Source: a virus
Taxonomy: Duplodnaviria; Heunggongvirae; Uroviricota; Caudoviricetes
Direction: 5' to 3' (one strand)
IMG/VR virus record: IMGVR_UViG_3300042691_025398
Coordinates: 55,814-119,813 of that record
DNA: 64,000 nt
The notes under the pieces were generated by a model, which was not told the DNA's origin, ran no database searches, and saw only the letters and a program-made list of their open reading frames with translations. The position numbers were made by a program, and so were the translations under genes. Of this stretch, positions 19,661-46,965 are shown piece by piece. Numbering within the stretch: the stretch's first letter is position 1; every line of letters starts with the position of its first letter.

Positions 19661-21202
19661 GTGCATTGTGGTAATTGCATACTGGGGTATGCTATCTTGG
19701 TTGGATCTAGAATGACACACATTCTTGGAGTCAGCGGTGGATTTCACGATGGAGCAGTTGCTCTGATCAACACCAATGGTGATATCTTGTATGCAGCGCA
19801 CAGTGAGAGATATAGCAAGTTAAAAAATGATCCAGGCATCAGTCCAGATCTATTACAGTATATAAAAGATTATGACATCCACACCGTGGCCTTTTATGAA
19901 AGACCCTGGTTGCACAATGTTCAACAGTTTGTAAGCGGACAAAAATCATATACACCTTGGACCACCAAGGGAAGGATTAAGGATCTAATACCAAAGATGC
20001 CTTGGACTCCAAGCACAGTAGAGAGTCATCCACATCATTTAAGTCATGCTGCCGCTGCCTTTCAAACTTCTACATTTGACACTGCTGCTGTAGTGGTAAT
20101 TGATGCCATCGGCGAGTTGGACACTATCAGTATCTATAAAGCCAGTTATAACGATCATGGCCAGGCAGTGTATAAACGAGTGTGGCGACATTTGTACCCA
20201 CACAGTATTGGTTTGTTTTACTCTGCTATGACAAAATACGTAGGCCTAAAGCCCATGGAAGATGAATATATCTTGATGGGCATGAGTGCGTATGCAAATA
20301 TAAACAGTCGTTTGGCAAAAACGCATATAAAACAAAATCTAATTGACGACATACACACAGCAACCTTCCTACGCAATCTACACATTGGCATAGAAGAAAA
20401 CGAATTTGCATTATATGAACCAGAAGACCTTGCAGGAGCAGCTCAACGAATCACCGAAGAAATGATATCTTCGATCATGCGCCTGGCACGTACTCTCACA
20501 GGCGAATCCAATCTATGTTATGGTGGAGGAGTGGCATTAAACTGTGTGGCCAACAGCCGACTGGGGGGATATTTTGATAAGATATGGATTATGCCTAATC
20601 CTGGTGATGCTGGAGCCAGTCTTGGCGCAGCCGCATTGAGTTATGGGCGTAAACTCAACTGGAAAAATGCTTATCTTGGTCATTTTATCAATGGCGACTA
20701 TCCTGTAAAATTTTTACTTGATGAACTAATCAAAAATCAAATAGTTGGTGTGGCAAGTGGCCGCGCTGAGTTTGGTCCACGTGCGCTTGGCAATAGAAGT
20801 TTATTGGCTGATCCACGTGGACATGATATAAAGGATCGTGTAAATGAAATCAAACGCAGACAAAAGTTTCGACCATTCGCACCTGTCGTACTGGAAGAAA
20901 TGGCTGATCAGTACTTTGATTTCAGCCCTGGGTGGAGTGATAGCCGTTATATGCAGTCAGTCGCTCGTTGTAGGAATCCTGACTTGTTTCCTGCTATCTG
21001 CCATGTTGATGGGACCAGTAGAGTACAAACGGTACCAAAAGACAGTTCAGGAATTAGAGAACTCCTAGAAAAATGGTTTGTAATGACTGGATGTCCAATG
21101 TTGTTGAATACTTCTTTAAACATTCGTGGTGAGCCAATGGTTAATGATCGTTATGATGCTCGGCGATTCTCCGAGCTGTATGGCATTAAAGTTTTCACTT
21201 AA
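19661..21202 (+). CDS. Carbamoyltransferase (NodU/CmcH/TobZ family)
   Basis: N-terminal HILGVSGGFHDGAVALINTNGDILYAAHSERYSKLKND is the Kae1/YgjD-like ASKHA start of O-carbamoyltransferases. Length 513 aa. Confidence 0.75.
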   Translation: MHCGNCILGYAILVGSRMTHILGVSGGFHDGAVALINTNGDILYAAHSERYSKLKNDPGISPDLLQYIKDYDIHTVAFYERPWLHNVQQFVSGQKSYTPWTTKGRIKDLIPKMPWTPSTVESHPHHLSHAAAAFQTSTFDTAAVVVIDAIGELDTISIYKASYNDHGQAVYKRVWRHLYPHSIGLFYSAMTKYVGLKPMEDEYILMGMSAYANINSRLAKTHIKQNLIDDIHTATFLRNLHIGIEENEFALYEPEDLAGAAQRITEEMISSIMRLARTLTGESNLCYGGGVALNCVANSRLGGYFDKIWIMPNPGDAGASLGAAALSYGRKLNWKNAYLGHFINGDYPVKFLLDELIKNQIVGVASGRAEFGPRALGNRSLLADPRGHDIKDRVNEIKRRQKFRPFAPVVLEEMADQYFDFSPGWSDSRYMQSVARCRNPDLFPAICHVDGTSRVQTVPKDSSGIRELLEKWFVMTGCPMLLNTSLNIRGEPMVNDRYDARRFSELYGIKVFT

Positions 21203-22229
21203 GATAGTCCTCTAGTCCACCTGAGCGTCGCACGTCCTGAGTGCAACAACTGATACCACCATCCCAGAAGTAACTGTGTCTTAGTTCACAAATCACTGGA
21301 GTGATATTATGCTTTTCGCAAAAGTCAAACACTGTTTTGTTGTATGCAGAAAATATCACTGTTTCTTCGTCTAGCACAAGACAGTTTACATCAAACACAG
21401 TTTCCGCTACATAACCTGTCCATTTGGTAAGATATGTGTTTACATACTCAGTGAATTCTGGTGTGGGTGTTTGTCCTTGTACGTACCAGGCACCTGGACT
21501 CTCTTCGTATCTGAACTTGCCCACTTCCATGGCGGCCCATATACTACTATCCCAGATTTTACACACATCCCAACCAGGAAAATCTTTGGCTAGATCAAGA
21601 TTCACATCATGTTTACTGGACAGTATCACTCCTGGTTTCAATATAGCAAACACAGCATCGCCGTGGCCATCAGTCACGGCTTCGTGAACACGATAATCAG
21701 ATCCCAGCACATTGTTTACAATCCACGCTGTTTGTTCTGGACGCAGGAAGTCGCTGTTGTCAAAGAAGATATCACGCCCCACACGCACAATGCAGCTTGC
21801 ACTGGCGCCATTAAGAACACAGTCAGGATCCCAGGGCAGATCGCCATGTGGGTTGATTACCGCATCACCATAGGCAGCACAGATATCATTGAGTTCATGA
21901 ATGGGCAAGATTCTCAAGAGTTTCTGTCCAAGAGTGATTTGCCAATCTCTTGGAGTCAACGGTGGAAGCGGAACCCCTTCTGCTCTGATTTGATTGTTTT
22001 GAAACCAATGTTTGTCAGGTAGATTGGGTCTTCTAACCACAGCACCATACTGTTCAATAGTGCGCTGAAGTATGTCAAGATCTTCAGCAGTTTCTGCTAG
22101 TATCTGCTGCAATTGATTTCTCACTTGCGCATTGTCTATGAAGTCAAAATAATCTGGATCATAGGCACGGCCAACTATCACCTCTTCAAGAGGTTGCCAA
22201 CTGGTAAAGGAATTAACTAATGGAATCAT
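21195..22229 (-). CDS. Amidinotransferase-family protein (GATM/StrB1 fold), paralog 1
   Basis: N-terminal SWQPLEEVIVGRAYDP matches the NEWDPLEEVIVG start of glycine/inosamine amidinotransferases. YRVHEAV..HGD..F and the C-terminal ISCCTQDVRRSGGLEDYL match the GGFHCWTCDVRRRG active-site Cys region. Confidence 0.7.
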   Translation of the reverse strand: MIPLVNSFTSWQPLEEVIVGRAYDPDYFDFIDNAQVRNQLQQILAETAEDLDILQRTIEQYGAVVRRPNLPDKHWFQNNQIRAEGVPLPPLTPRDWQITLGQKLLRILPIHELNDICAAYGDAVINPHGDLPWDPDCVLNGASASCIVRVGRDIFFDNSDFLRPEQTAWIVNNVLGSDYRVHEAVTDGHGDAVFAILKPGVILSSKHDVNLDLAKDFPGWDVCKIWDSSIWAAMEVGKFRYEESPGAWYVQGQTPTPEFTEYVNTYLTKWTGYVAETVFDVNCLVLDEETVIFSAYNKTVFDFCEKHNITPVICELRHSYFWDGGISCCTQDVRRSGGLEDYLK

Positions 22230-23403
22230 ATAATTGTCGAGTAAGGTTATTTAATCTGTCAGACTTTGATGATAGAAAGTTCTGTTGGTTATACACAGCA
22301 TCCTCTTCACACTGTTGAGCCCATCTAAATAGATCCAAGGATAACAATGATTGCACTGTCATTTGAGCATGCAAGTATCGTTGTGTGTTGTCTGTTATGC
22401 TGTCATATACATTTGAAATTTGAGCATCGTAAGTTCTGTATCCGAGCTCTCTTAATGTAGCCAGACTACCCGCTGGTGCAAACAGCACAAAAGGTTGTGC
22501 ATGTTTGATTGGCTTGAAAGTTTTTTCAGTTAAAAATGTACCGGTGCTTTGATCTGCATCAAACATGGTTTCAAGTACGATGTTGAAATAACTTTCTTGA
22601 AAATGTTCTGGTACCAGAGTATGATGCTGATTGTGTTCTTGTGCTGAGAGACTATCACAGGTGTAAGGTGCACCGGCAACAAATTTATCAACTGATTCAG
22701 CCAGTCCTGGAAACCAAGCCAGCTCAATTGGATTGTCTTCGGGTTGATCACTTACATCAAGCAAATTGTAACTAAAGAAACTATTATCAAGAGACCCACG
22801 TCTTTGTAGGTCGGCCAACACAGTTGCTCTCCACCATTTGTGTGTGCGACTAAGCAGTGTGAACTGACAGTTTCTTGGTGCTGGATTCCATGACAAGGCT
22901 GTTTGTTTTTTATTTGCTCTCCAATAAAACAATTCATGGTCGGCGAAATACACAAAGTTGCTCACATCACGTGCTGCGGTATTGCCACTAACAAATCTAT
23001 AACATTCAATGCTGAGACTGTGTTTTTTACACAATTCATCAAGCCTTACTTTTTCTTGCACAGGGTTGTCACCTTCGTGATAATAAAACAGCACTGTCAC
23101 TAGATTTTTCCTAACAAGATCTAACACCAACTGCGGTATTAATTCAAAGTAATCAATTGAGAAGTTGAAAAAGCCCAGTCCAATAGGATAAAAACACACA
23201 TCAGGTAATTGATCTTGCAAGCGATAAGTTTGATAAGGCACTGCATGATCTTCAACATAATACAGCAGACGCAGCGGCACCACATATGGGAAAGCACTAC
23301 CAATGTCTCCATAGCCCTGACTGAGATCACTCAGAGGCATGAGATTGGGATATGGTTTGTTGTTAATCCAACGATCAAACAAAAAGTTCAGTTTGTATAT
23401 CAT
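22213..23403 (-). CDS. GT10-like glycosyltransferase, paralog 2
   Basis: YFNIVLETMFDA...FLTEKTFKPIKHAQPFVL, same family as 12214-13332. Confidence 0.5.
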   Translation of the reverse strand: MIYKLNFLFDRWINNKPYPNLMPLSDLSQGYGDIGSAFPYVVPLRLLYYVEDHAVPYQTYRLQDQLPDVCFYPIGLGFFNFSIDYFELIPQLVLDLVRKNLVTVLFYYHEGDNPVQEKVRLDELCKKHSLSIECYRFVSGNTAARDVSNFVYFADHELFYWRANKKQTALSWNPAPRNCQFTLLSRTHKWWRATVLADLQRRGSLDNSFFSYNLLDVSDQPEDNPIELAWFPGLAESVDKFVAGAPYTCDSLSAQEHNQHHTLVPEHFQESYFNIVLETMFDADQSTGTFLTEKTFKPIKHAQPFVLFAPAGSLATLRELGYRTYDAQISNVYDSITDNTQRYLHAQMTVQSLLSLDLFRWAQQCEEDAVYNQQNFLSSKSDRLNNLTRQLYDSIS

Positions 23404-24472
23404 GTAGTACAGATTCTAATTCCTGCCATAGTCGGGCTTCAAAGCCGCCATTGTAAAAGTGATTGTAATTGTGCATCACAATGTCTTGACATTGCTGGTG
23501 TATTTTTTGTTTGTCTGTGTGTTCTAGCTCTCGCAACAACTCGGCTATTCGTTGCATACGCATGTGATCATCAGTTTCTGTATCATAACTTTCATCCCAA
23601 ACCGAATGAAATGTTTCAAAGCCATATTTTCTAAGATAACCAAGACTGTGTGCAGTACTGGCCAACACAAATGGCATTTGCATGCATATGGGTTGGAAAG
23701 TTTTTTCAGTAAGATGTTGTCTTATTCCGGATCCAACTGTTTCATTAACCACATATACCAAGCATTCACTACTTTGAGTCTGGAGACTCAGTGTGGCACT
23801 GGCATAGCTGGGTACCACCTGAGTTTCTAACTGCAAGGGCAACGGTACTTGAGCGAACACTTGATGTATGTCTGGATAACTTGAAAGCAAGGTTTCACTG
23901 GCCTGATACACTGTGACATTTTCTGCGGGACAGATCAAGGGAAAACTAATTCTATTGTGTGCTAGATCGTTTTTCACCAAATGATACATCAAGATCAATC
24001 TATGCAATCTTTCACCTGCAATAATGCGATTGGGTGATATGAAAGTGTGTTTGATAGTTCTATCTGCATAGGGTTCCAGCAAATAGGATCTATTGTAACC
24101 TCTAAACCAATCCAATGCAGCCCATCCATTGTAAAAGTAATAGAAGGATTTCCAGTTGTTCAAAGCACACAATCTAGCAACTGTGGCACTGTTGTATTCA
24201 CTGGTGATGATTGCTCCAGTGCCAGGTGCAAGGTTAGTTGACTCTTCACACTGTACAATATGGTCAATAATTGGACGTAATCTACTGATCTCAACTGGTT
24301 CTTGATCAAAGGCCAAAACATAGTTGAATTCTCCTCCTGGTGGAGCATACGACCTTAAATATTCAATGCCAACATGCCCTGGTGGATCTAAAAACCAAAA
24401 CCTAGTTCGCGGAACATAACGGCGAATATAGGCCCATAATGTATTGGCATAAATCTCCTCTATTCTAATCAT
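23375..24472 (-). CDS. GT10-like glycosyltransferase, paralog 3
   Basis: LVYVVNETVGSG...HLTEKTFQPICMQMPFVL. Confidence 0.5.
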   Translation of the reverse strand: MIRIEEIYANTLWAYIRRYVPRTRFWFLDPPGHVGIEYLRSYAPPGGEFNYVLAFDQEPVEISRLRPIIDHIVQCEESTNLAPGTGAIITSEYNSATVARLCALNNWKSFYYFYNGWAALDWFRGYNRSYLLEPYADRTIKHTFISPNRIIAGERLHRLILMYHLVKNDLAHNRISFPLICPAENVTVYQASETLLSSYPDIHQVFAQVPLPLQLETQVVPSYASATLSLQTQSSECLVYVVNETVGSGIRQHLTEKTFQPICMQMPFVLASTAHSLGYLRKYGFETFHSVWDESYDTETDDHMRMQRIAELLRELEHTDKQKIHQQCQDIVMHNYNHFYNGGFEARLWQELESVLHDIQTELFV

Positions 24473-26081
24473 GTTTGATGTATTTTATTTTGGTAACAAA
24501 CCTAACCTGTTCGCACACGAACGTAGAATCAACAGTTTAGATCAAGCAAGGCAATTGTGTAACACTAGGTTTTTTTGGATTGTTGATTACTTAGTGGATT
24601 ACTCCGGCTTTGACTTTCTTTATGAACCCGTGCCTTGGCAGCAGCATCAAAGGCATGTGTGGCCCAGTCAATGGCAGTGCGACAGCGGTACCTGGTTGGT
24701 CCCAAATCATGATTGGTCAGAATCCAATTATCAGCATCCAGTGGTCACACGCACGCCTTTCAAGGACGTGATTTATATTGATCACGGCAACAGCAATAAG
24801 CCAACAGTTGAACACCAGCGACGTACTAGATTTGTTGAAAGTTATTTAAAAACTCTAGCTCGCATAGTATCTAATCTAGATCAAGAATATGCATGGGTGT
24901 GTAGCAGTGTGTGTGATTATTCCAACTTTGATTTCAGTTGGCACCCTGAACCATGGCAAAACACCATGATACATGTGTTTGCTAGTGGCAAACAAAAGTT
25001 TGGTGACACTTTCTATATACATGTGCCTTCTGCTCAAGAACAACTTAAAAAAGTTGAACTTCTAGATTGGGCCAACGTAAACTTTGTTGAATCTATCAGT
25101 GTGCCTAGGCATCATATGCCTGTGAATTTTCATTACAAAGACAGTCACATAGAACCAATACAAAGTCATGAGTTCACAGCACCTTTAGAAATTTTTACCA
25201 GCGTTAACATTGACAACATAGATATACCAGAAATTTGTTTGTGGAGAGATCAAACCAAAACTATCACTCCCTTGAGCAAAGGTGCGTCCACGGTGATAGT
25301 TCCGCAACAGGCAGCTCCGTATATCAAAAAGCAGTTGTATGATTATGCTTACATAAACAAATCTCAAAATGATCTTGTAATTGATCAAGAGCAAGATGTG
25401 ATTTTTATCAGCAACAATGAACCCATGAGCGAACGAAACTGGGAGATATTGAAATCTCATTGTCCTAGAGCCCGACGTAGTTCAAATGTTCATGGACGTG
25501 AAGCTGCATACAAAGTCGCAGCAGAACAGAGTGAAACTCCTTGGTTCTTTGCTGTGTTTGCCAAGACCGAAGTGCTGTCTTCGTTTGATTTCAGTTTTCA
25601 ACCTGATCGCATGCAACAGCCCAAGCACTATATTTTTCACAGTCGTAATCCCGTGAATGGTCTTGAATATGGTGCCATGAACATAAATTTGTACAATCGT
25701 CAACTGGTATTGGACACAGTTCCTGGGTTGGATTTCACGCTCAGTGCCTTGCACACAGTGGTACCTGTGTGTGCAAGCATATCAAGATTTAATACTGACC
25801 CTTGGATCACTTGGCGCAGTGCTTTTAGAGAAACCATGAAACTGCAAAGGGAAGTCGAGCTAGGTGCTGATATTGAAATAGAACACAGACTTCACGTGTG
25901 GTGCACTCAAGCACAGGGAGAAAATGCTGATCATTGTCTTCAAGGAGCTCTTGACGGAGTTGAATATTATAAGTCGGTTAATGGTGACTATGATGCACTG
26001 TGTTTGAGTTTTGATTGGCAGTGGTGCCAGGATTGGTATTACAACAAGTATAAAAAACAGCCTTGGTTAGAATCGCAGTAG
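24471..26081 (+). CDS. Repeat-domain protein (three SxFDFxxxPxPWQ repeats plus a C-terminal domain paralogous to 8843-9769)
   Basis: Internal repeats SGFDFLYEPVPWQ / SNFDFSWHPEPWQ / SSFDFSFQPDRMQ. Confidence 0.4.
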   Translation: MFDVFYFGNKPNLFAHERRINSLDQARQLCNTRFFWIVDYLVDYSGFDFLYEPVPWQQHQRHVWPSQWQCDSGTWLVPNHDWSESNYQHPVVTRTPFKDVIYIDHGNSNKPTVEHQRRTRFVESYLKTLARIVSNLDQEYAWVCSSVCDYSNFDFSWHPEPWQNTMIHVFASGKQKFGDTFYIHVPSAQEQLKKVELLDWANVNFVESISVPRHHMPVNFHYKDSHIEPIQSHEFTAPLEIFTSVNIDNIDIPEICLWRDQTKTITPLSKGASTVIVPQQAAPYIKKQLYDYAYINKSQNDLVIDQEQDVIFISNNEPMSERNWEILKSHCPRARRSSNVHGREAAYKVAAEQSETPWFFAVFAKTEVLSSFDFSFQPDRMQQPKHYIFHSRNPVNGLEYGAMNINLYNRQLVLDTVPGLDFTLSALHTVVPVCASISRFNTDPWITWRSAFRETMKLQREVELGADIEIEHRLHVWCTQAQGENADHCLQGALDGVEYYKSVNGDYDALCLSFDWQWCQDWYYNKYKKQPWLESQ

Positions 26082-27035
26082 GTAAGGTTGTTTTAAAAAC
26101 CAGTCAAGATATTCTTCAATGCCTTGTTCAATATCCACAGAGGGTCGCCAGCCAGTAACCGCTGTGAGTTTTGAACTGTCAAGTGTGTCACGATTTGGAT
26201 AAAAACTATCAGCGGGTGCATATTCTACTCTACACAGAATTCTACGTTGAATAATTTCAGCTGCTTCGCCAATGGTACGTCCATTACCTCTAGTACAGTT
26301 AAAAATTTCGTTAGCAGCATCTGGGTGTAATGTAGCAGCAGCAAACGCCGCAGCAACATCGGTGACAAAACTGAAGTCCAGTCGGTTATCTGGACCGTTC
26401 ACTGTGATCACATGATCAATCATGGCGTCCACGGTCATTTTTGAAATCACACGTACTACCATATCGCGTGGTCCATACAGTGCACTGGGTCTAAGAATGG
26501 TGTAATTAAGTCCGTATTCTTTGTGCCATATTTTGCACATGCGTTCTGCTTGTAATTTATAACTGCCATAAAGGGTCAAAGGATCACATTCACTTTGCTC
26601 ATTTGGCTGACCGTCAAACTTGCCAAAATCTCCGTATACCATGGAACTGCTGGCCAGCACAAATCTGTCAACCTTGAATTGCACACACAATTCCAGTGCT
26701 AGCGCAGTTGCCGCTACCATATTAACAGTAGCATCCACAACATTTTTCTTTACCATTCTAGCATTTGGGTATGTAGCAAGATCTACCACTCGCTCTGGCT
26801 GCACTTCCAAGAATACTCTGTGCATGAAATCTTTATCAGTGACATCACCAAACCAAATTGCATGATCACCAATATAATCCACACGCTGTTTCATTACTGT
26901 ATCAAACTCCCACTGTGGATATTCGCTATAGTCATGGTGACAATCTACCACATGCACTTCATGGCCTTGATCAAGTAACATACGTGAAAGATTGTGGCCA
27001 ATGAATCCATGTCCACCTAGAATTAAGATTTTCAT
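26067..27035 (-). CDS. NAD-dependent epimerase/dehydratase (extended SDR)
   Basis: MKILILGGHGFIGHNL Rossmann GxxGxxG at the N-terminus. Length 322 aa. Confidence 0.8.
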   Translation of the reverse strand: MKILILGGHGFIGHNLSRMLLDQGHEVHVVDCHHDYSEYPQWEFDTVMKQRVDYIGDHAIWFGDVTDKDFMHRVFLEVQPERVVDLATYPNARMVKKNVVDATVNMVAATALALELCVQFKVDRFVLASSSMVYGDFGKFDGQPNEQSECDPLTLYGSYKLQAERMCKIWHKEYGLNYTILRPSALYGPRDMVVRVISKMTVDAMIDHVITVNGPDNRLDFSFVTDVAAAFAAATLHPDAANEIFNCTRGNGRTIGEAAEIIQRRILCRVEYAPADSFYPNRDTLDSSKLTAVTGWRPSVDIEQGIEEYLDWFLKQPYLLRF

Positions 27036-28075
27036 TTTAATGCCTTTGCAATTTGTTCAACTTCTTCGTCGGTTAGGGTGTGTTGATTGGGTACTGTAAA
27101 TGATTTTTGGCAGAGTTCTCTACTGCGAGCTAGCACAGCGTCTCTGTGATAAAGTGGCTCATCGTTGATCAACGGCAAATAGTGTATGGTAGTTGCTACG
27201 CCGTGGTCATATAGGTGCTGGATATAACCTGATTGATCGTTGGTTTGAAAAACCAATTTTTGAAAGCCGTTTCTTTCTATATCAAAGTCTGTGGCGCATG
27301 TGATTTTGGTACTACAAGCAAGATATCTTGCAATGTGTTCGCGACGACGATGCCAGCTGTCTGCCCGATCAAGACATGTCCAAATAGCAGCCGCTTCAAA
27401 ACTGTTGATCATGCTGTTAAGGCCAGTATGATGTGCTGCATGTTTTGAATGATATTTGCCGTGCAAGCGTAATGCTCTAGCCCTAGCAGCCACTTGGATG
27501 TCATCGGTAAACAGAGCTCCACCACTACCCCAACTGGATATGGGTTTACTTGGACTAAAACTCACACAACTTATATCACCGCACTTGACACTCCATGTGC
27601 CATTGCGGCTTTCCATGCTCTGTGCAGCATCATTAATGATAGGAATTCCCAGCTTGTCTAACTCTGACCAGTTGCTCATGTTGCCAAACATATCAGCTAC
27701 TACCACAGCACGAGCGTCAGCAGGTATTTGCGTGGGATCAATACAATAGTTGTGATTTACGTCCACTGTGTGCACTTGATACCCAGCTCTTCGTATGGCA
27801 TGTGCAGTGGCAATAAAAGTGTAGTTTGTCACTGCCACCAATGCACCTTGAGGCAAATTAAGACAAATTAATGCGATAATCAATGCATCAGTGCAACTGG
27901 CAGTGGTAACGCAATGACCACGACCGTATTGTTCTGCTAGTCTAGATTCTAGTCTCTGTACCAATCGAGTGTTTTGAGCCAACCCATTGGCATTGTCCTC
28001 ATCAACCAATTGCCAAACATTCTCGCGAATGTCTTGCCAATTCCGATTGTTTTGAAACAGAGCTATGTTATTCAT
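27032..28075 (-). CDS. DegT/DnrJ/EryC1/StrS-family PLP sugar aminotransferase
   Basis: CVSFSPSKPISSWGSGGALFTDD matches the conserved SFHxxKxxxxGEGGxxxTND block of sugar aminotransferases. Confidence 0.75.
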   Translation of the reverse strand: MNNIALFQNNRNWQDIRENVWQLVDEDNANGLAQNTRLVQRLESRLAEQYGRGHCVTTASCTDALIIALICLNLPQGALVAVTNYTFIATAHAIRRAGYQVHTVDVNHNYCIDPTQIPADARAVVVADMFGNMSNWSELDKLGIPIINDAAQSMESRNGTWSVKCGDISCVSFSPSKPISSWGSGGALFTDDIQVAARARALRLHGKYHSKHAAHHTGLNSMINSFEAAAIWTCLDRADSWHRRREHIARYLACSTKITCATDFDIERNGFQKLVFQTNDQSGYIQHLYDHGVATTIHYLPLINDEPLYHRDAVLARSRELCQKSFTVPNQHTLTDEEVEQIAKALK

Positions 28076-28697
28076 AGCTGCTGACTAGATTAAAAGTTTC
28101 TGCATATCGCGCACCAATTTTTGAAGCCGCGTATTGATTAGATATGCTTATGTCTTGAATCTCTCTCATGCCAAGATAACTGCTATAACATTCTAACAAC
28201 TGCAATTTAAACTTCCAGTGTTCACTGATGTCTATGGTAATCTGCGGACGAACAGTATGCCAGTGTTCGTATGGCCAATGATTCATGGTCCAAATTTCTC
28301 GTGCACGATTTTTCAATAAGGGCAGCACAAGACTGTAGGTGTTTCTATGATCTTGGTGACTGTCTTCGGGATTGGGCAGTATAGCAAGATCGCAATCCGC
28401 GACATAGTCAGACAGTCTTGACATGGTGACATTGTCACATACTAGATTTGGACGACCACTTCCGTGTGTGTCTGTGTTAAACAACAAGCAGTTCCAACCA
28501 CTGATGTCATAACTGCGATGCAGTTCATTAAGCACAGATTGTCTTGTGCGTTTGCGATCATCTTTCTCACTGGGTCTTACAGTGATAATACTGAATATCT
28601 CCGCACCTTCTTGTTGCCAACGGCGTAGAGATCCTGCACAACCTATCTCTAAGTCGTCAGGATGAGCTGAGAATACCATTATCTTTTTTCTGGCCAT
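28068..28697 (-). CDS. PIG-L/LmbE-family N-acetyl-sugar deacetylase
   Basis: IMVFSAHPDDLEIGCAG matches the AHPDDE motif of LmbE-like deacetylases. Confidence 0.7.
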   Translation of the reverse strand: MARKKIMVFSAHPDDLEIGCAGSLRRWQQEGAEIFSIITVRPSEKDDRKRTRQSVLNELHRSYDISGWNCLLFNTDTHGSGRPNLVCDNVTMSRLSDYVADCDLAILPNPEDSHQDHRNTYSLVLPLLKNRAREIWTMNHWPYEHWHTVRPQITIDISEHWKFKLQLLECYSSYLGMREIQDISISNQYAASKIGARYAETFNLVSSYE

Positions 28698-28924
28698 CTT
28701 AAAAAATATTCTGTAATTTTTTTAGCATCCTTGATCTCACCAGTTACTTGTACTTTGAAACCAAAACTGTTAACATCTGGATAACACTGCCATGTCAAAT
28801 CATCAGCATGTTTTCCTACCCATTTGCCATGTTCGGTTTGTTGCCACTTCCAAATTGGATCTTCTGCATACAGTTGAGGATCCTCTACATCGCCCAAGTT
28901 GAATGATAAAAATTGTATTTTCAC
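28679..28924 (-). CDS. Hypothetical small protein
   Basis: 81 aa ORF, translationally coupled with its neighbours. Confidence 0.3.
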   Translation of the reverse strand: MKIQFLSFNLGDVEDPQLYAEDPIWKWQQTEHGKWVGKHADDLTWQCYPDVNSFGFKVQVTGEIKDAKKITEYFLRWPEKR

Positions 28925-29565
28925 TTGATCAATTCAATAAATTTATCGGCCATGGCCTGATGTTGTTGTGGTCCAGGGTGCAATTGATCACTGCCTAGGT
29001 CAAGCCACTGTTGTGGACTTTGACACATCTGATGATAGTTAGGAATGTCATAAAGTTTTGCTGCGTTTTCCACATCGTAAAGCACACTCATTACAATCAG
29101 GTTAGCGCCTATACGAGTGCAAAAGTTATTGGCTCTACGTATGGCCTGTATGTTATGATACATGAGAGTTGGGTGCAAAAGCAAGTCAATTGGAAATTGT
29201 TTATCAATGCTTTTGTCATAAGCATACTCTCCAGGTGTTAAATGAAACAATGACAGTTGCTTGATCACTGGCAATCTAGGAGGAACTGTGAGAGCCCATA
29301 GCACCAGATCACCTTGCATGATCTCACTTTGACAGATTTGGTCGCTTTGCCATATCACACTGCTGCCTTCTGCACTAAGATCGCTGTAAGGCAGTTGGAT
29401 AGTTCTGCTGACTATTTCCTTCCAGGTTTGGTGGGTGTCAACACCAACACCCATAGTGACGCTACAACCCGCAGCCCAAAATTGTTTGGTGGCTTTTCTT
29501 GGTTGGCCGGATCGTATGGCAGCTAGTTGTTCTAGCTCTTGAAAGCCCGGCCCTGTGATAGGCAT
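28921..29565 (-). CDS. SGNH/GDSL-like hydrolase (tentative)
   Basis: N-terminal block AAGCSVTMGVG and C-terminal DQLHPGPQQH resemble SGNH blocks I and V (GDSxxxG ... DGxHP). Confidence 0.4.
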   Translation of the reverse strand: MPITGPGFQELEQLAAIRSGQPRKATKQFWAAGCSVTMGVGVDTHQTWKEIVSRTIQLPYSDLSAEGSSVIWQSDQICQSEIMQGDLVLWALTVPPRLPVIKQLSLFHLTPGEYAYDKSIDKQFPIDLLLHPTLMYHNIQAIRRANNFCTRIGANLIVMSVLYDVENAAKLYDIPNYHQMCQSPQQWLDLGSDQLHPGPQQHQAMADKFIELIK

Positions 29566-29574
29566 GAAAAATCC

Positions 29575-30228
29575 TTAGGTGGTATGATCAATCAAGGGAA
29601 AAATCTTGGCAATCACACCAGCGCAGGCCAAGGCAATTTCTTGATGTTCTTTTTGGGTGCCATGTGCACGGCGTAGTTCAATATAATGTACCCATGATCG
29701 CAAGGTACCATTCATGTACAAACGACTTTCAGTAAGACCTTCTGGCAGCACAACACGAGCCTGTTCTTTGGCAATGCCATTTTCTATAGCCCAAACGTAT
29801 GCCTGTTTAGCAGCTTCGATCACAAAACGCTGTCTAGCTGCCCATGTTTCATGTAAGTCTTCATTGTCTGTTTCAATGCTGTTCTGTCTGTTTTTGGGAT
29901 CTTGCAATCTTGCTTCTCTATACACAAAGTTCAAATCCTTGGTTGGATCAGCATAACGTTGACTGAATTCTTGAAAACTAAAGCTTCTATGTCGTAGCAT
30001 CTGTCTAGCAATGTCACGTGTGGTTGTGATTTCAAGACAAGCTGACACCATTTCAAGTGGACTCCAATGTTGATGCTTGATAAGATAGCGTATTAATTTT
30101 TCACTGGTCTCGGTATTGGTCTGATTATTTGGATTACTCACACGAGCACAAAACGCAATTAGTTCTTGTGCATTATCCACCCCAGGAATATCCACAGGTT
30201 GGCTATAGCTGATCAATTTTATAGTCAT
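29575..30228 (-). CDS. thyX: Flavin-dependent thymidylate synthase ThyX
   Basis: RHRSFSFQEFSQRY matches the ThyX signature RHRxxSxxxxSxRY. Length 217 aa. Confidence 0.8.
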   Translation of the reverse strand: MTIKLISYSQPVDIPGVDNAQELIAFCARVSNPNNQTNTETSEKLIRYLIKHQHWSPLEMVSACLEITTTRDIARQMLRHRSFSFQEFSQRYADPTKDLNFVYREARLQDPKNRQNSIETDNEDLHETWAARQRFVIEAAKQAYVWAIENGIAKEQARVVLPEGLTESRLYMNGTLRSWVHYIELRRAHGTQKEHQEIALACAGVIAKIFPLIDHTT

Positions 30229-31242: not shown

Positions 31243-31243
31243 T

Positions 31244-31528
31244 TTATTCTCCTTGTTGTGATTCTACTGGAACAGATTCATGGCCAATACCGTCCGCTTT
31301 GGTAGTTAAATCTTGTGGGGTTTCCACATATTTTAAAAAGGCGTCTAGTTTGTCAAAAGCCTTGCCAACGTTCTGCATTTCTTCGGCACGAAATGCGCCT
31401 CGCTGTGCAGCCACTTGTATACAGGATCGCAGTACAATCAAGTCTTGCACGTTGATAGATGGCAATTCAGGGGTTTCCTGTTCAGTTGCGTTTTGGGGTA
31501 GTGTATTTTCCATAGTAGTGTTTTCCAT
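31244..31528 (-). CDS. Hypothetical protein
   Basis: 94 aa ORF. Confidence 0.3.
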   Translation of the reverse strand: MENTTMENTLPQNATEQETPELPSINVQDLIVLRSCIQVAAQRGAFRAEEMQNVGKAFDKLDAFLKYVETPQDLTTKADGIGHESVPVESQQGE

Positions 31529-31539
31529 ACGGATATTTA

Positions 31540-31576
31540 CTCAAGAAAAACCCGCAGATTAAAAATATCTGCGGGG
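31540..31576. terminator. Bidirectional rho-independent terminator
   Basis: cccgcagat-loop-atctgcggg hairpin flanked by A-run and T-run. Confidence 0.55.
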
Positions 31577-31594
31577 TTTTGGGCAAATTGACTG

Positions 31595-32395
31595 TTATTT
31601 GTTTATCATCAATCCAGTCATGTTGCTGGGTACAATAATAGTCTGTACTCGACCGTTCTTGATGCCTTCGGAAATGTTTAGAGCAGCTTGTGCATTCATG
31701 TAAGCAATCGAACTTGCTGATTGTGCACTGAGAGCCTGCATCCTACGTGACTCAGCTTCGGCTGTTTTTACTTCCACTTCTTTCTGCTTGAATTCATTCT
31801 TGGCACGTACTAGAGCATTAGCTGACTCAACAACTGAATCCGCAGGTACAATGTTACGAACTAGCACTTGATTGATAGTGATTGCACCATCTAACTTTTC
31901 ATCAGCTAGAGTACGCTGAATGGTTTCACGTACCCGTTGCTCAATGGCAGCACGGTTGTCATTCATATCCAGTGCTTCATACTCACGTGCAGATTTGTAC
32001 ACAGCATTTCGAGCACTTTGAACAATGTAGTTATACATCAGATAGGTATCACCGTTGTGCTGAGCATGAAATGCCTTGCTCTTTTGGCTGTATAGTTCAC
32101 TGACCTGGCCTTGATTGATGTTGTAGATCACAACTGCATCAAAGTCTTTCATGGTGCTGTTGTCTTTGGCCAACGGAGTCATGTCATTGATAGTGACATT
32201 AACATCCTTGATTGGAAAGGTCAATACATCACCAATCAAGGTTTGATTAAAGCTACCTGGTAATAGTTCACCTTGTTGGATCTGTTTGTCAAATCCAATA
32301 CGCACACCCACTTCGCCGGTTTCAATACGAGTACAACCACCTCCCATGACAGCCAATGCAAAAATCAAAAACACAGTAAATGAAAAAATCCTCAT
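31595..32395 (-). CDS. SPFH/band-7 (stomatin/prohibitin-like) lipoprotein
   Basis: Signal peptide with a lipobox-like GGGC, then the SPFH core (EVGV...DVN...DAVVIYNI). Confidence 0.6.
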   Translation of the reverse strand: MRIFSFTVFLIFALAVMGGGCTRIETGEVGVRIGFDKQIQQGELLPGSFNQTLIGDVLTFPIKDVNVTINDMTPLAKDNSTMKDFDAVVIYNINQGQVSELYSQKSKAFHAQHNGDTYLMYNYIVQSARNAVYKSAREYEALDMNDNRAAIEQRVRETIQRTLADEKLDGAITINQVLVRNIVPADSVVESANALVRAKNEFKQKEVEVKTAEAESRRMQALSAQSASSIAYMNAQAALNISEGIKNGRVQTIIVPSNMTGLMINK

Positions 32396-32580
32396 GATGC
32401 CCTCTTAAAAAACAGTAACAATTACAAAAAGTGTCAGCAGAGCTAACACACTAAACAACATTGCAAATCCAACAGTTTTCAACAAACTTAGTCGTTCTTG
32501 GCCAGTGTATCTACTGATAGTGGTTATAGTCAAGCCAAACAGGATGCTTAGAAGCAAATAGATCAAGATTGCTTTGATCA

Positions 32581-33840
32581 TCACGTGGTTGCCTTTTCAT
32601 AATATGCATATTGTCCCCAGGGAGGTACAATTTCTTTGGTACCGTGTATGATCCACAGAGTGTCAGAGTAGTTTTCATCGCCCCACGAACCAAACGGATA
32701 ACCGTCTGTGAACACAACCAATCGCTTGGGTTCAATCTGTTCCTTTTTCAAGTAATCAAACACACAGTCAAAGTCGGTACCACCGCCTCCGGTGATTTCG
32801 TAATCGCATATGGTATCCAAATTGTCCGAAGTGTAGGTTACTGGATTGTATGCTTCTGTGTCAAATGTGACCACATGGATACGAAACTGTTGAAACTGAT
32901 CCATGATGCCCTGTACTTCACTCAAAAAGTCCTTGAGCATTTTCTCACTTATGGACCCTGATGCGTCAATTGCGATAGCAATATCAATCTGTTCGTCGTT
33001 GCGCATGCCAGGCATGATAGCATCCATGTGCCAGCCTCTACGACTGGCTCGCATCCAACTGAAATCACTCTTGATCGTGCTCTCCAAGTTCAACCTTAGC
33101 AGTTCGCGCCAGTTCAACGCTGGTTCAGTAAGATCTTTGATCAGCCTACGCACACCCAATGGGATGTTACCTGCTTCGCTGGTTGACGCTGCATTTAGTA
33201 TGGCTTCTTTGATTTCGTCGCGGATCTTTGCACGTTCTTCGTCAGTGATTTTAGGACGGTTACCATCTTCATCTTGGTCACCATCGCCGTCCATGTGTTC
33301 GTCGAGTATGCGTTCTACCAACTGGTCTATGTCGAGCTTTTCTGCATTTTCATACAGATAATCGTAAACCTGTTCGCTACTCCAGCCTTCGTATTTCTGA
33401 TCGTAAAGGCAAGGCACAGTGGTAATAAACTGGCCTACATGATGTTTTCTAAGATCTGCATTCACACAATAGTCATTGGCCACGTTCCACAACTGCGGAT
33501 CACGCGATCCACGACGTCCAAAGTGATCATATACACAGTGCAATACTTCATGTCCAAACAAGAATTCTAGTTCTCGAGGTTCGAGCATTTTAATAAACTT
33601 GGAATTGAAGTAGAAGTTTCTTCCATCTGTGGCAGCGGTGCTGCACCATTCATCAGCAGGCACCAGTTTGAGCCTTGTGGCTAGATTGCCAAAGAAACTG
33701 CTCTTGAGCAACAGTCCAATTCGCGCAGTTCTCAACTGTTCAATAACATTTTCAAGCTCGCGTCCTTGAGGACTTGGGCCAATCAAGTTTTGGAATTTTT
33801 TCGCAAGTTCTTTTGTATTCTCAGTTGTGTTATTTGACAT
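32581..33840 (-). CDS. VWA-domain protein (CobT-like partner of the AAA+ ATPase), with an HExxH motif
   Basis: VWA MIDAS-like DIAIAIDASGSIS and HEVLHCVYDH. Confidence 0.55.
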   Translation of the reverse strand: MSNNTTENTKELAKKFQNLIGPSPQGRELENVIEQLRTARIGLLLKSSFFGNLATRLKLVPADEWCSTAATDGRNFYFNSKFIKMLEPRELEFLFGHEVLHCVYDHFGRRGSRDPQLWNVANDYCVNADLRKHHVGQFITTVPCLYDQKYEGWSSEQVYDYLYENAEKLDIDQLVERILDEHMDGDGDQDEDGNRPKITDEERAKIRDEIKEAILNAASTSEAGNIPLGVRRLIKDLTEPALNWRELLRLNLESTIKSDFSWMRASRRGWHMDAIMPGMRNDEQIDIAIAIDASGSISEKMLKDFLSEVQGIMDQFQQFRIHVVTFDTEAYNPVTYTSDNLDTICDYEITGGGGTDFDCVFDYLKKEQIEPKRLVVFTDGYPFGSWGDENYSDTLWIIHGTKEIVPPWGQYAYYEKATT

Positions 33841-33883
33841 AGCAGCTCCTTGTTAGCATATCAATATTATACATGATCTGTCT

Positions 33884-34423
33884 TTATTGGTCAAGCGGAC
33901 TAGATAATGTAAAAAAAGCAACTTCTTTTTCTGAAGCACAGTATATGCGGTATTCTGTTCCGGTTTTACCATTGGTCCAACTCCAAGTGGGATTCAAAAT
34001 ATCTTTGTTTTCAAAACCGGTCAAATCTTTTATAGTCTGTCGTTTACGCCAACCCGAAAGAGTGTGTTGCAATTCACAGTGAGCCAGTATTTGACACCAT
34101 GCACGTATTTCAGCACTCCATCCATATGTTTTCTCAAACCATTTTTGAGCCTTGATAAATGTCAATGCGTCGGAACCCCGGGTACTGGTTCTGTGAAAAC
34201 TGATGTAGTACTCAAAGTGCTCATGATAATTGAATCTATGATCAAGTTTTTGTATTTTATACGGTGTCTGTTTCATATGACTTCTCGGGAAACTTAAGGT
34301 TGAAAATTGTGATATCTCGTGGATCAGTAAAATAAAAGTTAATGGTCCATATTTCATCAGGGCCAATCTTTTGATCCACCGGTACCATAAAGTGCCAGCG
34401 TTTGATAACACCTGGATTACCAA
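33884..34423 (-). CDS. Hypothetical protein
   Basis: 179 aa ORF. Confidence 0.3.
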   Translation of the reverse strand: MVIQVLSNAGTLWYRWIKRLALMKYGPLTFILLIHEISQFSTLSFPRSHMKQTPYKIQKLDHRFNYHEHFEYYISFHRTSTRGSDALTFIKAQKWFEKTYGWSAEIRAWCQILAHCELQHTLSGWRKRQTIKDLTGFENKDILNPTWSWTNGKTGTEYRIYCASEKEVAFFTLSSPLDQ

Positions 34424-34530
34424 ATGTCCGCCTTACCCCTGCGAGCAACTCACTGATGTACGTGTGATTATAACGCACTGTTCGTCTAACATTATGTAAT
34501 TGTTTCATGTTGAGAGTTTAAATAACATTA

Positions 34531-35478
34531 ATGTTTTCAATTAATAAACCTTGGGATCGATTACACACCGCGGTTGTGGGTAGTGCATACAGCACGGGCA
34601 GATTTGATTGGATAGAGTACACTGATATTCGACGTGAGTTAGAAATCATTGCACAGGAAACCCAAGAAGATCTTGACCACCTTGCCCACATACTTACATC
34701 ATTTGATGTACAAGTTCTACGCCCAGATATAAACCTGGTGCCTGCGCAGACCTTGCCTCCAGTGGCGCCGCGTGATGATCTGTTGATGTTACAAGATGTC
34801 ATGTATGTGTTAAACAATGATCGTGCAAGCGGTTACGAATCTATAGTTGCACATGTTAGATCTCAAAATAACTTGGTACACACGCATGATCAACCGGACA
34901 ATCACGGAGCCAATGTGTACGACATGGGTGATATGGTTTATTATAGCGTGGATCATATCGAAGACTTGCATAAATCGGAAACATGGTTCACTCGATTTTG
35001 TGACCAAAGGCCCAGACGCCGTTACTATAATGTTGGTCATTTGGACGGTTGGTGGTGTGCACCTACTCCGGGTGTGATAGCTGCCAGCCGTGATCATGAA
35101 CGTTTTGCATTTCAACAACTGTTTTTTCAACATCATTTTCCAGGTTGGCAAGTGCATTATCTTAATGAGACCTTTCAAGGACTAGACCAGCGTGCATGGC
35201 ACAGTGAAACTCATCCACCCGACAGTGAGTTTGCACGTTGGGTTAACAGTCATATACCGCACTGGCTTGGCTGTGCCAGTGAAACAGTTTTTGAAATCAA
35301 CATACTAGTGATTGACCATGAGCTGTGCATAACCGGACAAGATCATCCTGTGTTGCGCGATTCTCTTAAACAAAAAGGGTGCCACCTTGTGGTAGCACCC
35401 TTGCGCCATCAAACCTTTTGGGATCTAGGCATACACTGCGCCACGTCTGACCTGCATCGTGTTAGGAATTCGAACTAG
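34531..35478 (+). CDS. Amidinotransferase-family protein, paralog 2
   Basis: N-terminal WDRLHTAVVGSAY plus C-terminal GIHCATSDLHRVRNS (the Cys-containing active-site end). Collinear with 21195-22229. Confidence 0.6.
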   Translation: MFSINKPWDRLHTAVVGSAYSTGRFDWIEYTDIRRELEIIAQETQEDLDHLAHILTSFDVQVLRPDINLVPAQTLPPVAPRDDLLMLQDVMYVLNNDRASGYESIVAHVRSQNNLVHTHDQPDNHGANVYDMGDMVYYSVDHIEDLHKSETWFTRFCDQRPRRRYYNVGHLDGWWCAPTPGVIAASRDHERFAFQQLFFQHHFPGWQVHYLNETFQGLDQRAWHSETHPPDSEFARWVNSHIPHWLGCASETVFEINILVIDHELCITGQDHPVLRDSLKQKGCHLVVAPLRHQTFWDLGIHCATSDLHRVRNSN

Positions 35479-40394: not shown

Positions 40395-42313
<1,919 letters not shown>

Positions 42314-43897: not shown

Positions 43898-43906
43898 TGT
43901 TTGTCC

Positions 43907-46932: not shown

Positions 46933-46965
46933 TACAATCCTATTACAATTTTGAAAATATTTTCA

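Follow-up and report, generated by a model that had tools for sequence, protein, structure and literature searches.

Why a phage should carry enzyme classes that are combined in aminoglycoside antibiotic clusters, and on what acceptor they would act, is the question raised by this locus. The window analyzed here is a stretch of 64,000 nucleotides (positions 55,814 to 119,813 of IMG/VR record IMGVR_UViG_3300042691_025398) from an uncultivated jumbo phage that is syntenic with 80+ IMG/VR viral contigs, the phage origin of the window being seen also in its tail-fibre genes and tRNA array. The initial annotation had described an aminoglycoside-like toolkit made up of a carbamoyltransferase, two amidinotransferases, a sugar aminotransferase, a deacetylase, an epimerase and an SGNH-like hydrolase, and the coordinates of all of these open reading frames hold. 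It had given no identity to their neighbours, which encode five glycosyltransferases as well as six radical SAM enzymes (Table 1).

Table 1. Features of the glycan-assembly island and its surroundings, in window coordinates.
Feature	Position	Strand	Evidence or remark
Fibre block	47-8527		Always precedes the island
Tail fibre with C-terminal intramolecular-chaperone domain	4281..5663	+	Pfam Peptidase_G2 IMC 2.8e-4; PHROG virion-protein matches in block
GT-A paralogue, 308 aa	8843..9769	+	BLAST 25-32% to members of the 536-aa family
Radical SAM, Cys-rich N-terminal SPASM-like region	9769..10836	+	Pfam Radical_SAM 1.4e-12, SPASM 3e-4
N-terminal-twitch radical SAM (NF033640)	10833..12227	+	NCBIfam 303 bits, cut-off 170
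Third GT-B paralogue, 372 aa	12214..13332	+	BLAST 23-26% to orthologues of the 396-aa glycosyltransferase
Four tandem N-terminal-twitch radical SAM paralogues	13320..18438 (13320-14654, 14641-15924, 15921-17156, 17146-18438)	+	NCBIfam NF033640 288, 406, 324, 291 bits, cut-off 170
Conserved acidic protein, 353 aa	18428..19489	+	64/64 loci; no family match in profile searches, NCBIfam among them
O-carbamoyltransferase, TobZ/NodU/NovN family	19661..21202	+	Pfam, PHROG, PDB matches
AmidT1, divergent amidinotransferase	21195..22229	-	Starts MIPLVNSFTSWQPLEEVIVG; AGAT, StrB1 matches
GT-B fold glycosyltransferase, 396 aa	22213..23403	-	ET...LTEKTFKPI motif
GT-B paralogue, 365 aa	23375..24472	-	hhalign with 396-aa family: probability 99.5%, E 3.5e-23
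GT-A fold glycosyltransferase, 536 aa	24471..26081	+	Homologues 533 to 1456 aa
Extended SDR on nucleotide sugar	26067..27035	-	Pfam Epimerase 1e-41
DegT/DnrJ/EryC1/StrS sugar aminotransferase	27032..28075	-	Pfam 2.8e-54
PIG-L/LmbE-type de-N-acetylase	28068..28697	-	Pfam 43.9 bits, cut-off 28.2; BshB1-like 1.7e-13
Possible SGNH-like hydrolase, 214 aa, accessory	28921..29565	-	Motifs GCSVTMG, DQLHP only
ThyX thymidylate synthase	29575..30228	-	Pfam Thy1 1.3e-43; 48/56 loci; conserved neighbour of sugar genes
AmidT2, amidinotransferase paralogue	34531..35478	+	Between VWA/DUF2201 and MoxR ATPase genes

The island extends over about 21 kb (8843-29565), and its core is retained in 53-64 of the 56-64 related jumbo-phage loci with full flanks. 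Tail-fibre genes always lie directly upstream of it and in the same direction (synteny in 12/12 contigs), the first island gene after the fibre block being the 308-aa GT-A, a counterpart of the 536-aa enzyme's C-terminal domain. Five of the six radical SAM enzymes are of the N-terminal-twitch type, the remaining one (9769..10836) scoring under the N_Twi cut-off, and three to five copies of the paralogue are found per related locus. No transmembrane segment was predicted in any island protein.

The carbamoyltransferase was borne out as a NodU/TobZ-type enzyme. Both of its Pfam domains score above their cut-offs (Carbam_trans_C 5.8e-49, Carbam_trans_N 1.3e-37), PHROG ‘Nol-like carbamoyltransferase’ matches at 6.6e-94, and the best solved relatives are NovN (1e-51), GdmN and TobZ (3e-37). 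Both domains and the HHLSH metal motif are common to it and TobZ, NovN, GdmN and NodU, although at about 496 aa the phage protein is smaller than these (576-702 aa); its true start is likely the ATG at 19712 (MTHILGVSGG). All 64 related loci that have a full flank keep the gene, which overlaps AmidT1 convergently by 8 bp at its 3' end. Taken alone it is ordinary, since phages often carry members of this family (PHROG 1601).

AmidT1 and AmidT2 matched no Pfam or NCBIfam model at E<=0.01, so the Pfam search by which the amidinotransferases were to be recognized gave nothing. Their assignment to the StrB1/GATM fold nevertheless held in profile comparison, where the AmidT family profile matches only amidinotransferases in the PDB (SxtG, HsvA, AGAT and StrB1, 2e-33 to 1e-29); AmidT1 matches AGAT at 7e-16 and StrB1 at 3e-14. 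An arginine deiminase or DDAH identity, named beforehand as the alternative for both proteins, was rejected on the same matches. With these pentein-fold relatives the AmidT proteins share G-x-x-C-x-T-x-D around the nucleophilic Cys, H-x-D, the PRD Asp and an N-terminal W-x-PL-x-EV-x-VG signature, while identity is about 25% or less, FPGW, W-x-G...ETVFDVN and RHxxFWDGG are specific to AmidT, and a Ser replaces the His before the Cys in AmidT1. Mapping of the active site gave a mixed outcome: AmidT1 retains the catalytic Cys328, His189 and the guanidino-binding Asp95 and Asp191, whereas Asp254 of the AGAT triad is not conserved (Ser143 is the aligned residue in AmidT1), nor are the carboxylate-binding Arg322 and Ser355 of AGAT, and therefore the chemistry or substrates of AmidT may differ. 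The anticipated rarity of such enzymes in phages was confirmed, a homologue of either protein being present in only 4 of 50,697 phage records; in cellular genomes the subfamily is nearly absent (nine MAG contigs among 185,579 species). The AmidT proteins belong to a virus-specific branch of the amidinotransferases.

The two paralogues differ in their standing. AmidT1 is the best-conserved core protein of the island (mean 80% identity over 81 loci) and is under strong purifying selection (dN/dS 0.08). It is the last minus-strand gene after two GT-B genes, overlapping the preceding one by 17 bp (17-29 bp for the same-strand overlaps of the three genes). AmidT2, separated from it by 12.3 kb (about 12 kb had been noted), is 28% identical to it over the full length (E 2e-32), matches HsvA (1e-3) and StrB1 (0.04) in the PDB as a single sequence, and retains the same four residues as AmidT1 (Cys, His and the two guanidino-binding Asp) together with His-Leu-Asp and GIHCAT motifs. 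It is a fast-evolving accessory gene, its orthologues being 66% identical against 88-92% for the flanking genes (pN 0.22, pS 0.78), and it occupies a variable MoxR-VWA hotspot in few relatives.

Among the sugar-supplying genes, the DegT/StrS aminotransferase, the LmbE/PIG-L deacetylase and the SDR epimerase proposed earlier all found profile support. The SDR is GalE-like (SSSMVYG, YGSYK) and is without the TDE motif of 4,6-dehydratases, its NCBIfam and PDB matches being split between epimerase and dehydratase; DegT is matched in the PDB by WbpE (1.7e-31), scyllo-inositol transaminase (7e-30) and QdtB; PIG-L carries AHPDDLE and HQDH. For the SGNH-like hydrolase the reading frame and its two motifs stand, but no Pfam, PHROG or NCBIfam match supports it. 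PIG-L is accessory (5 of 82 loci) and the SGNH-like gene sporadic (5 of 56); with the two present in four or five of 56 related loci, the listed genes do not form one toolkit. Across relatives, SDR and DegT are only 36% and 29% identical, and the far higher conservation of AmidT1 is a poor fit with a simple role of tailoring the variable sugar.

The five glycosyltransferases, the six radical SAM enzymes and the link to fibre genes speak for a glycan that is assembled on a macromolecule. Our leading reading, held at somewhat less than even confidence, is that the island directs a phage-encoded, soluble assembly of a guanidinylated and carbamoylated amino-sugar glycan, likeliest on a virion component. 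The GalE-like SDR and DegT would turn nucleotide sugars of the host into amino sugars bearing free amines, PIG-L joining this supply in the present sublineage, and the three GT-B and two GT-A enzymes would build an oligosaccharide on a soluble acceptor. Through Cys328, AmidT1 would take an amidino group from a guanidino donor, presumably L-arginine, and pass it to a sugar amine to yield a guanidino sugar; the TobZ-type enzyme would O-carbamoylate a hydroxyl via carbamoyl-AMP, and the N-terminal-twitch radical SAM enzymes, five or six in number, would add further radical modifications, e.g. methylation, epimerisation or oxidation. AmidT2 would be a separate, lineage-specific accessory paralogue with a possibly different acceptor.

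Soluble virus-encoded GT-A and GT-B enzymes with nucleotide-sugar enzymes, as in the island, are known from chlorovirus PBCV-1, Mimivirus and mycobacteriophage Che8, where they glycosylate capsids or fibrils, and the glycosyltransferase models match PBCV-1 A64R, A075L and B736L, Mimivirus R699/R655 and the Che8 glycosyltransferase; to our knowledge, however, these systems are all devoid of amidinotransferases, carbamoyltransferases and radical SAM arrays. Homologues of the 308-aa GT-A (ORF350, 38% identical), of an N-twitch radical SAM protein (36%) and of w7015/w7796 occur, in kept order, in ORF348-355 of Ralstonia jumbo phage RsoM2USA, the sole cultured phage to have them. The set lies inside the tail module, and the reduced GT-A/radical SAM/GT-A module adjoins structural proteins confirmed by mass spectrometry. 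It is a minimal module: the 19 kb examined contained no amidinotransferase or carbamoyltransferase, and the AmidT search returned no match from the RsoM2USA record.

A diffusible, guanidinylated and carbamoylated aminoglycoside-like compound or pseudo-oligosaccharide, made during infection, could instead act against competitors, other phages or translation in the host. Aminoglycoside clusters combine an amidinotransferase, a carbamoyltransferase, a DegT/StrS aminotransferase, a deacetylase, glycosyltransferases and radical SAM enzymes; the same classes as in the island occur together in those of streptomycin, bluensomycin, tobramycin and gentamicin, and the set is comparable to that which tailors streptomycin, bluensomycin and tobramycin (StrB1-, TobZ- and DegT/StrS-type enzymes, glycosyltransferases, radical SAM). 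The solubility of all island proteins and the scyllo-inositol transaminase among the best DegT matches also agree with such a compound. The aminoglycoside likeness drawn by the initial annotation thus extends to the tailoring enzymes but not to a cyclitol-forming step: no cyclitol synthase (DOIS/MIPS type; 2-deoxy-scyllo-inosose or inositol-phosphate synthase), exporter or self-resistance gene was found among the ORFs scanned. The viral island also has more glycosyltransferases than those clusters, one of variable domain count (533-1456 aa), which better suit a longer glycan, and it is stably tied to tail-fibre genes. We consider a diffusible product unlikely, even though ‘antibiotic synthesis genes’ have been proposed in print for cyanophage S-SCSM2R (PMC12801897).

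S-SCSM2R likewise encodes two amidinotransferase homologues and is a T4-like cyanomyovirus outside the clade of the present phage. Its ORF309, a classical StrB1-like protein with FDAAN, has glycosyltransferase and DegT-like genes for neighbours, as well as a radical SAM enzyme weakly similar to the N-twitch paralogue of the window (E 0.004), in a cluster without a carbamoyltransferase. ORF266, of the same subfamily as AmidT, was detected in purified virions, where its authors deem it likely non-structural carry-over (PMC12801897). Further points count against the glycan reading: its virion-proteome support comes from this distant phage, and the link between island and fibre genes is one of position alone.

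We rate as no more likely than a diffusible product the reading that AmidT1, AmidT2 or both are auxiliary metabolic enzymes acting on free metabolites. Like HsvA, AGAT and CyrA, they would form a guanidino compound from arginine and an amine (glycine, lysine or a polyamine), with the glycosyltransferases nearby by chance. Every characterised relative uses small molecules, HsvA and SxtG score no worse than StrB1 against the family profile, AmidT1 is conserved well above the sugar-supplying enzymes, and AmidT2 lies far from the sugar genes. AmidT1, however, overlaps a GT-B gene and invariably adjoins GT-B and carbamoyltransferase genes in related loci, distant homologues (29-33% identity) still adjoin N-twitch radical SAM genes in 5/9 MAG contigs, and the AGAT residues that bind the amino-acid carboxylate are not conserved.

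Remodelling of a host envelope polysaccharide (LPS or capsule), which would block superinfection or change the receptor, resembles the proposal for LPS-type genes of cyanophages and is slightly less probable still. The host is Gram-negative, to judge from the OprO/P porin and PstS among the phage proteins, the sugar genes differ between relatives as in O-antigen loci, and the AmidT homologue of S-SCSM2R adjoins KdsA/KdsB and glycosyltransferases. The island, however, holds no lipid-carrier protein, polyprenyl-phosphate glycosyltransferase, flippase, polymerase or other Wzx/Wzy-type machinery, an absence that makes ordinary LPS synthesis unlikely, as had been supposed, and it is linked to fibre genes. 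Hypermodification of phage DNA, in which a guanidino- or carbamoyl-sugar on a modified base would evade restriction, is the least probable proposal, and we regard it as very unlikely.

Overall, the product of the island is probably made for the phage itself and not as an aminoglycoside antibiotic. We infer that the glycan is probably positively charged and that its acceptors are probably virion or tail-fibre proteins, the fibres encoded directly upstream being the likeliest. If a virion component is indeed the acceptor, the phage particle would gain a cationic and chemically unusual glycan coat.

The two amidinotransferase paralogues of the window, AmidT1 and AmidT2, are related over their full length (28% identity, E 2e-32). 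As single sequences compared with solved proteins, AmidT1 matched AGAT (7e-16) and StrB1 (3e-14) as well as HsvA and SxtG, and AmidT2 matched HsvA (1e-3). A profile of the 49-sequence family searched against the PDB recovered amidinotransferases only at E<=0.01 (SxtG 1.8e-33, HsvA, AGAT and StrB1 2.4e-30) and neither arginine deiminase nor DDAH, the two enzymes that the initial annotation had set against its own interpretation; a deiminase or DDAH reading was therefore discarded and both proteins are taken as StrB1/AGAT-type. The PF02274 match that had been anticipated did not appear, as no family was returned for either protein by Pfam (E<=0.01) or NCBIfam, and the PHROG scan gave PHROG 25854, a family with no assigned function, as the sole match.

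The catalytic mapping to AGAT upheld the expected Cys and His and failed for the triad Asp. The nucleophilic Cys (AGAT Cys407) corresponds to Cys328 of AmidT1, is invariant across the 49 sequences and lies in GIHCAT in AmidT2, while the catalytic His (AGAT His303) corresponds to His189 and is kept in at least 90% of family sequences. Both guanidino-binding Asp residues (AGAT Asp170 and Asp305) are invariant, as Asp95 within PRD and Asp191 of AmidT1, and GHLD and PRD are also present in AmidT2. The triad Asp254 of the AGAT FDAAD motif is not conserved, being Ser143 in AmidT1, His in AmidT2 and E, D, N, Q or S across the subfamily; Glu276 is a candidate to stand in for it in the structure. AGAT Arg322 and Ser355, which bind the substrate carboxylate, are replaced in the alignment; AmidT1 orthologues show S-C-C at a site where relatives show H-C, and the motifs FPGW, ETVFDVN and RHxxFWDGG are peculiar to the subfamily. 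Purifying selection was observed on AmidT1 (dN/dS 0.08 against its closest relative) and on AmidT2 (pN 0.22, with pS saturated at 0.78).

Features of the window, with coordinates, strand and supporting matches
Feature	Coordinates	Strand	Remarks
Tail fibre with C-terminal intramolecular-chaperone domain	4281-5663	+	In fibre block (47-8527)
Conserved gene w7015	7015-7812	+	Between fibre genes and island
Conserved gene w7796	7796-8527	+	Between fibre genes and island
Sugar-gene island	8843-29565		About 21 kb
Six tandem radical SAM genes	9769-18438	+	Five NCBIfam NF033640
Carbamoyltransferase	19661-21202	+	Pfam carbamoyltransferase domains 5.8e-49, 1.3e-37; solved structures NovN, GdmN, TobZ 1e-51 to 3e-37
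AmidT1	21195-22229	-	Amidinotransferase
396-aa GT-B	22213-23403	-	Glycosyltransferase
365-aa GT-B	23375-24472	-	Glycosyltransferase
536-aa GT-A	24471-26081	+	Glycosyltransferase
AmidT2	34531-35478	+	Amidinotransferase
S-adenosyl-L-homocysteine hydrolase	38592-39881	-	
OprO/P-type phosphate-selective outer-membrane porin and PstS phosphate-binding protein	42488-44932	-	Porin Pfam 2.7e-46
Two-piece (permuted) tmRNA, betaproteobacterial type	46936-47338	-	Rfam RF01850, 163 bits; ARAGORN tag peptide ANAANDEVFALAA
515-aa radical SAM protein	48978-50525	-	
28 tRNA genes	53575-59968	-	All 20 amino acids; small ORFs interspersed
RF-1 domain (ArfB-like) protein	53735-54211		Within tRNA array
NT5C deoxynucleotidase	57711-58211		Within tRNA array

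The open reading frames to which the initial annotation had assigned tailoring functions were found at the positions it gave them. The carbamoyltransferase is of the TobZ/NodU O-carbamoyl type, with Kae1-like N-terminal and YrdC-like C-terminal domains (130.5 and 166.4 bits against Pfam cut-offs of 24 and 27) and the HxxxH metal motif as HHLSH; translation probably begins at the ATG at position 19712. The DegT/DnrJ/EryC1/StrS aminotransferase matches PF01041 over its full length (residues 16-346, 2.8e-54, 185 bits against a cut-off of 19.8), with C3 and C4 as the candidate positions of amination, and the PIG-L/LmbE deacetylase matches PF02585 (43.9 bits against 28.2) with the zinc motifs AHPDDLE and HQDH. 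The extended SDR (Pfam 1e-41) carries GalE-like SSSMVYG and YGSYK, and its best NCBIfam matches fall far under the equivalog cut-offs; a 4,6-dehydratase name was rejected because the T-D-E motif ahead of YxxxK is missing, so that "epimerase-like" is the safer label. The candidate SGNH-like ORF (28921-29565) has two motif-like strings, the block-I-like GCSVTMG and the block-V-like DQLHP, and was without a match in Pfam, PHROG and NCBIfam scans.

The three ORFs that separate AmidT1 from the SDR gene, unannotated before, are glycosyltransferases. The two GT-B proteins are paralogues (hhalign 99.5%) with a third copy at 12214-13332, and the ET...LTEKTFKPI motif of the 396-aa protein may resemble the GT10 fucosyltransferase motif. 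Profile searches of the PDB with the 396-, 365-, 536- and 265-aa families gave nothing usable, and structure prediction was therefore applied to two of these four. The model of the 536-aa protein (pLDDT 87.7) has a GT-A fold matching B4GALNT1, WrtF, chondroitin polymerase and SunS, as well as viral proteins including PBCV-1 A64R, Mimivirus R699 and the glycosyltransferase of mycobacteriophage Che8. Homologues of this protein differ in length, from 533 to 1456 aa, even between closely related phages (the window, L018, L024 and L046), and an FDW-x-W-x-P string is repeated in the family consensus, a hint that whole domains are gained and lost. The C-terminal domain of the protein has a paralogue in the ORF at 8843-9769. 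There is a 17-bp overlap between AmidT1 and the stop of the GT-B gene before it, and one of 29 bp between that gene and the other GT-B, an arrangement that looks like a GT-B/GT-B/AmidT1 operon.

Five of the tandem radical SAM paralogues score 288-406 bits against the curated cut-off of 170 for NF033640 ("N-terminal twitch domain radical SAM"), and the remaining ORF (9769-10836) reaches 34 bits, under that cut-off. The family, itself uncharacterised, places a twitch/SPASM-like Cys-rich domain N-terminal to the radical SAM core; it is also seen beside distant AmidT homologues and in the Vibrio jumbo phages K566/K567 (L169, L172, L174, L177). Outside the island, the window encodes the further 515-aa radical SAM protein and a full-length S-adenosyl-L-homocysteine hydrolase (7e-132), the latter suggesting heavy SAM-dependent methylation during infection.

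The AmidT1 island is conserved across hundreds of environmental jumbo-phage contigs. More than 1,900 AmidT1 relatives were found in a large protein collection, many 80-86% identical and on contigs up to 350 kb, and 161 IMG/VR stretches encode one, on contigs up to 364 kb; a megablast comparison of the region with 50,697 phage records gave no match. AmidT1 is the most constrained island protein: its mean identity to the window across the IMG/VR loci is 80%; the other means are ThyX (72%), carbamoyltransferase (59%), the four 3'-most N-twitch radical SAM paralogues (54-68%), glycosyltransferases (45%), the radical SAM proteins at 9769-10836 (38%) and 10833-12227 (32%), SDR (36%) and DegT (29%). 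In loci with full flanks, the carbamoyltransferase, a 353-aa protein of unknown function and N-twitch radical SAM genes (3-5 copies per locus) were present in 64/64, GT-A and SDR in 56/56, GT-B in 53-56/56, DegT in 53/56 and ThyX in 48/56; two genes are sporadic, PIG-L (4/56, or 5/82 by HMM) and the SGNH-like one (5/56).

Among representatives of clusters at 50% identity, nearly all full-length AmidT1 orthologues group together in a single cluster, beyond which no full-length relative exceeds 41% identity. The subfamily is nearly absent from cellular genomes, with nine loci, all on MAG contigs, among 185,579 species genomes. Five of these nine have the homologue (identity of full-length copies 29-33%) adjoining N-twitch radical SAM paralogues, and a sixth carries ThyX and carbamoyltransferase; in one locus radical SAM genes are densely packed and include that of a B12-dependent enzyme.

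AmidT2 does not belong to the island. It occupies, with a 179-aa ORF of no assigned function, the gap between the VWA/DUF2201 and MoxR AAA ATPase genes, a gap that is as short as 62 bp and as long as 5 kb among 65 related loci (window 32581-36553; L087-L166) and holds an AmidT-like gene in only three of them, at 31-34% identity in two. An orthologue was found in four IMG/VR loci only and is 66% identical, against 88-92% for the flanking VWA and MoxR proteins; this lower identity and the variable gap mark AmidT2 as a rapidly evolving accessory gene at a variable insertion hotspot.

The nearest relatives of the MoxR ATPase (49%) are in PA5oct-like Pseudomonas jumbo phages. A phage-encoded two-piece tmRNA is unusual phage cargo and a clue to the host, and the porin, also unusual in a phage and lying with PstS next to GroEL (40395-42017), implies that the host is Gram-negative and limited for phosphate. 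Taken together, the tmRNA, the 28 tRNA genes, the porin and PstS suggest a Gram-negative host, probably betaproteobacterial.

The plus-strand half of the island (8843-21202) lies directly 3' of the fibre-type gene block on the same strand, and this order is the same in 12/12 related contigs retrieved with w7015. Besides the tail fibre, the block contains four smaller conserved genes and the gene of a 1131-aa acidic protein, in which a short segment (residues ~170-246) matches structural proteins of virions, those of tail fibres and baseplates among them. The products of w7015 and w7796 belong to conserved 243-265-aa proteins with invariant Asp97 and Asp99; a GT8-like assignment, suggested by strings seen by eye (FAxNNxxxDY, including FAFNNxxxDY; LDxDY, including LVLDVDYVV), found no support in Pfam, hhalign and PDB profile searches. 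The Ralstonia jumbo phage RsoM2USA is the only cultured phage with homologues of w7015, w7796, the GT-A (38% identical) and the N-twitch radical SAM (36%), and its ORF348-355 lie next to ORF356, a structural protein, and ORF359, the tail sheath; mass spectrometry confirmed these two in virions.

A comparable gene combination occurs in the cultured cyanomyovirus Synechococcus phage S-SCSM2R, where ORF302-310 (L176, 3580-10333) encode three glycosyltransferases, a DegT-like protein, a radical SAM protein, a glycosyltransferase, a 2OG oxygenase, a classical StrB1-like amidinotransferase (ORF309) and a GT2. Since that amidinotransferase is only remotely related to those of the window (E 4e-06), the combination may have been assembled independently. 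A homologue of the AmidT subfamily itself, S-SCSM2R ORF266, was detected in CsCl-purified virions (PMC12801897).

A soluble, phage-encoded glycan-assembly island is the best-supported reading. The SDR and DegT enzymes, with or without PIG-L, would make amino sugars; their tailoring would fall to the carbamoyltransferase and to AmidT1, which is predicted to use L-arginine as donor of an amidino group for an amine; the five glycosyltransferases would build the glycan chain, and other modifications would come from the radical SAM enzymes. A virion or tail-fibre protein is the most likely acceptor, going by the position of the genes, the missing lipid-carrier machinery and the analogy with viral glycosylation. 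The main weakness of the glycan reading is the far stronger conservation of AmidT1 than of the enzymes presumed to provide its amine; the substrate-binding residues of AmidT1 also differ from those of AGAT. One rival is a free-metabolite role of the amidinotransferases.

A diffusible aminoglycoside-like product, with the island making a phage-encoded antibiotic, is an alternative novel reading, and the genes of the S-SCSM2R ORF309 cluster were named "antibiotic synthesis genes" by their authors (PMC12801897). The cyclitol step of an aminocyclitol-type cluster, the likeness drawn in the initial annotation, was not seen: among the window's larger ORFs (genome ~190 kb), Pfam scans found no cyclitol-forming enzyme, neither 2-deoxy-scyllo-inosose synthase nor myo-inositol-1-phosphate synthase. 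Remodelling of the host surface is a further rival. Of a lipid-carrier (Und-P) surface polysaccharide pathway, neither the membrane-bound priming glycosyltransferase nor the flippase or polymerase was found by Pfam among the scanned ORFs, and hydrophobic segments of transmembrane strength are absent from all island proteins. An Rfam scan of the island found no riboswitch of guanidine or SAM type. DNA hypermodification is the last rival. In its widest form the glycan reading, which we consider tentative and rather doubtful, is that uncultivated aquatic jumbo phages of a widespread clade employ a virus-specific amidinotransferase branch, coupled in function to N-terminal-twitch radical SAM enzymes, to build guanidino- and carbamoyl-sugars for their own particles or possibly their DNA.

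What is known of virus-encoded glycosylation comes mainly from giant viruses of eukaryotes and from a small number of phages, where the sugars are ordinary ones. Carbamoyltransferases are common in phages (PHROG 1601), and phage amidinotransferases have been annotated earlier (PMC12801897; KEGG K00613 in AMG surveys). A literature search on NF033640 and on phage, amidinotransferase and carbamoyltransferase together found no account of this system, and three elements appear new, with no prior description found: the divergent, essentially virus-borne amidinotransferase subfamily, its repeated association with NF033640 radical SAM arrays, and the conserved 21-kb glycosyltransferase-rich island in a widespread jumbo-phage clade.

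Overall, the repeated pairing of the AmidT subfamily with NF033640 offers a first lead to the function of the two families, neither of them characterised, and the island adds amidino transfer, carbamoylation and a radical SAM battery to virus-encoded glycosylation. The widest form of the glycan reading, if true, would amount to a viral glycan chemistry not yet described. Should the product be a small molecule, it would be an antibiotic-like compound made by a phage; should it decorate virions, a cationic glycan would offer a new means of tuning adsorption or masking the particle.
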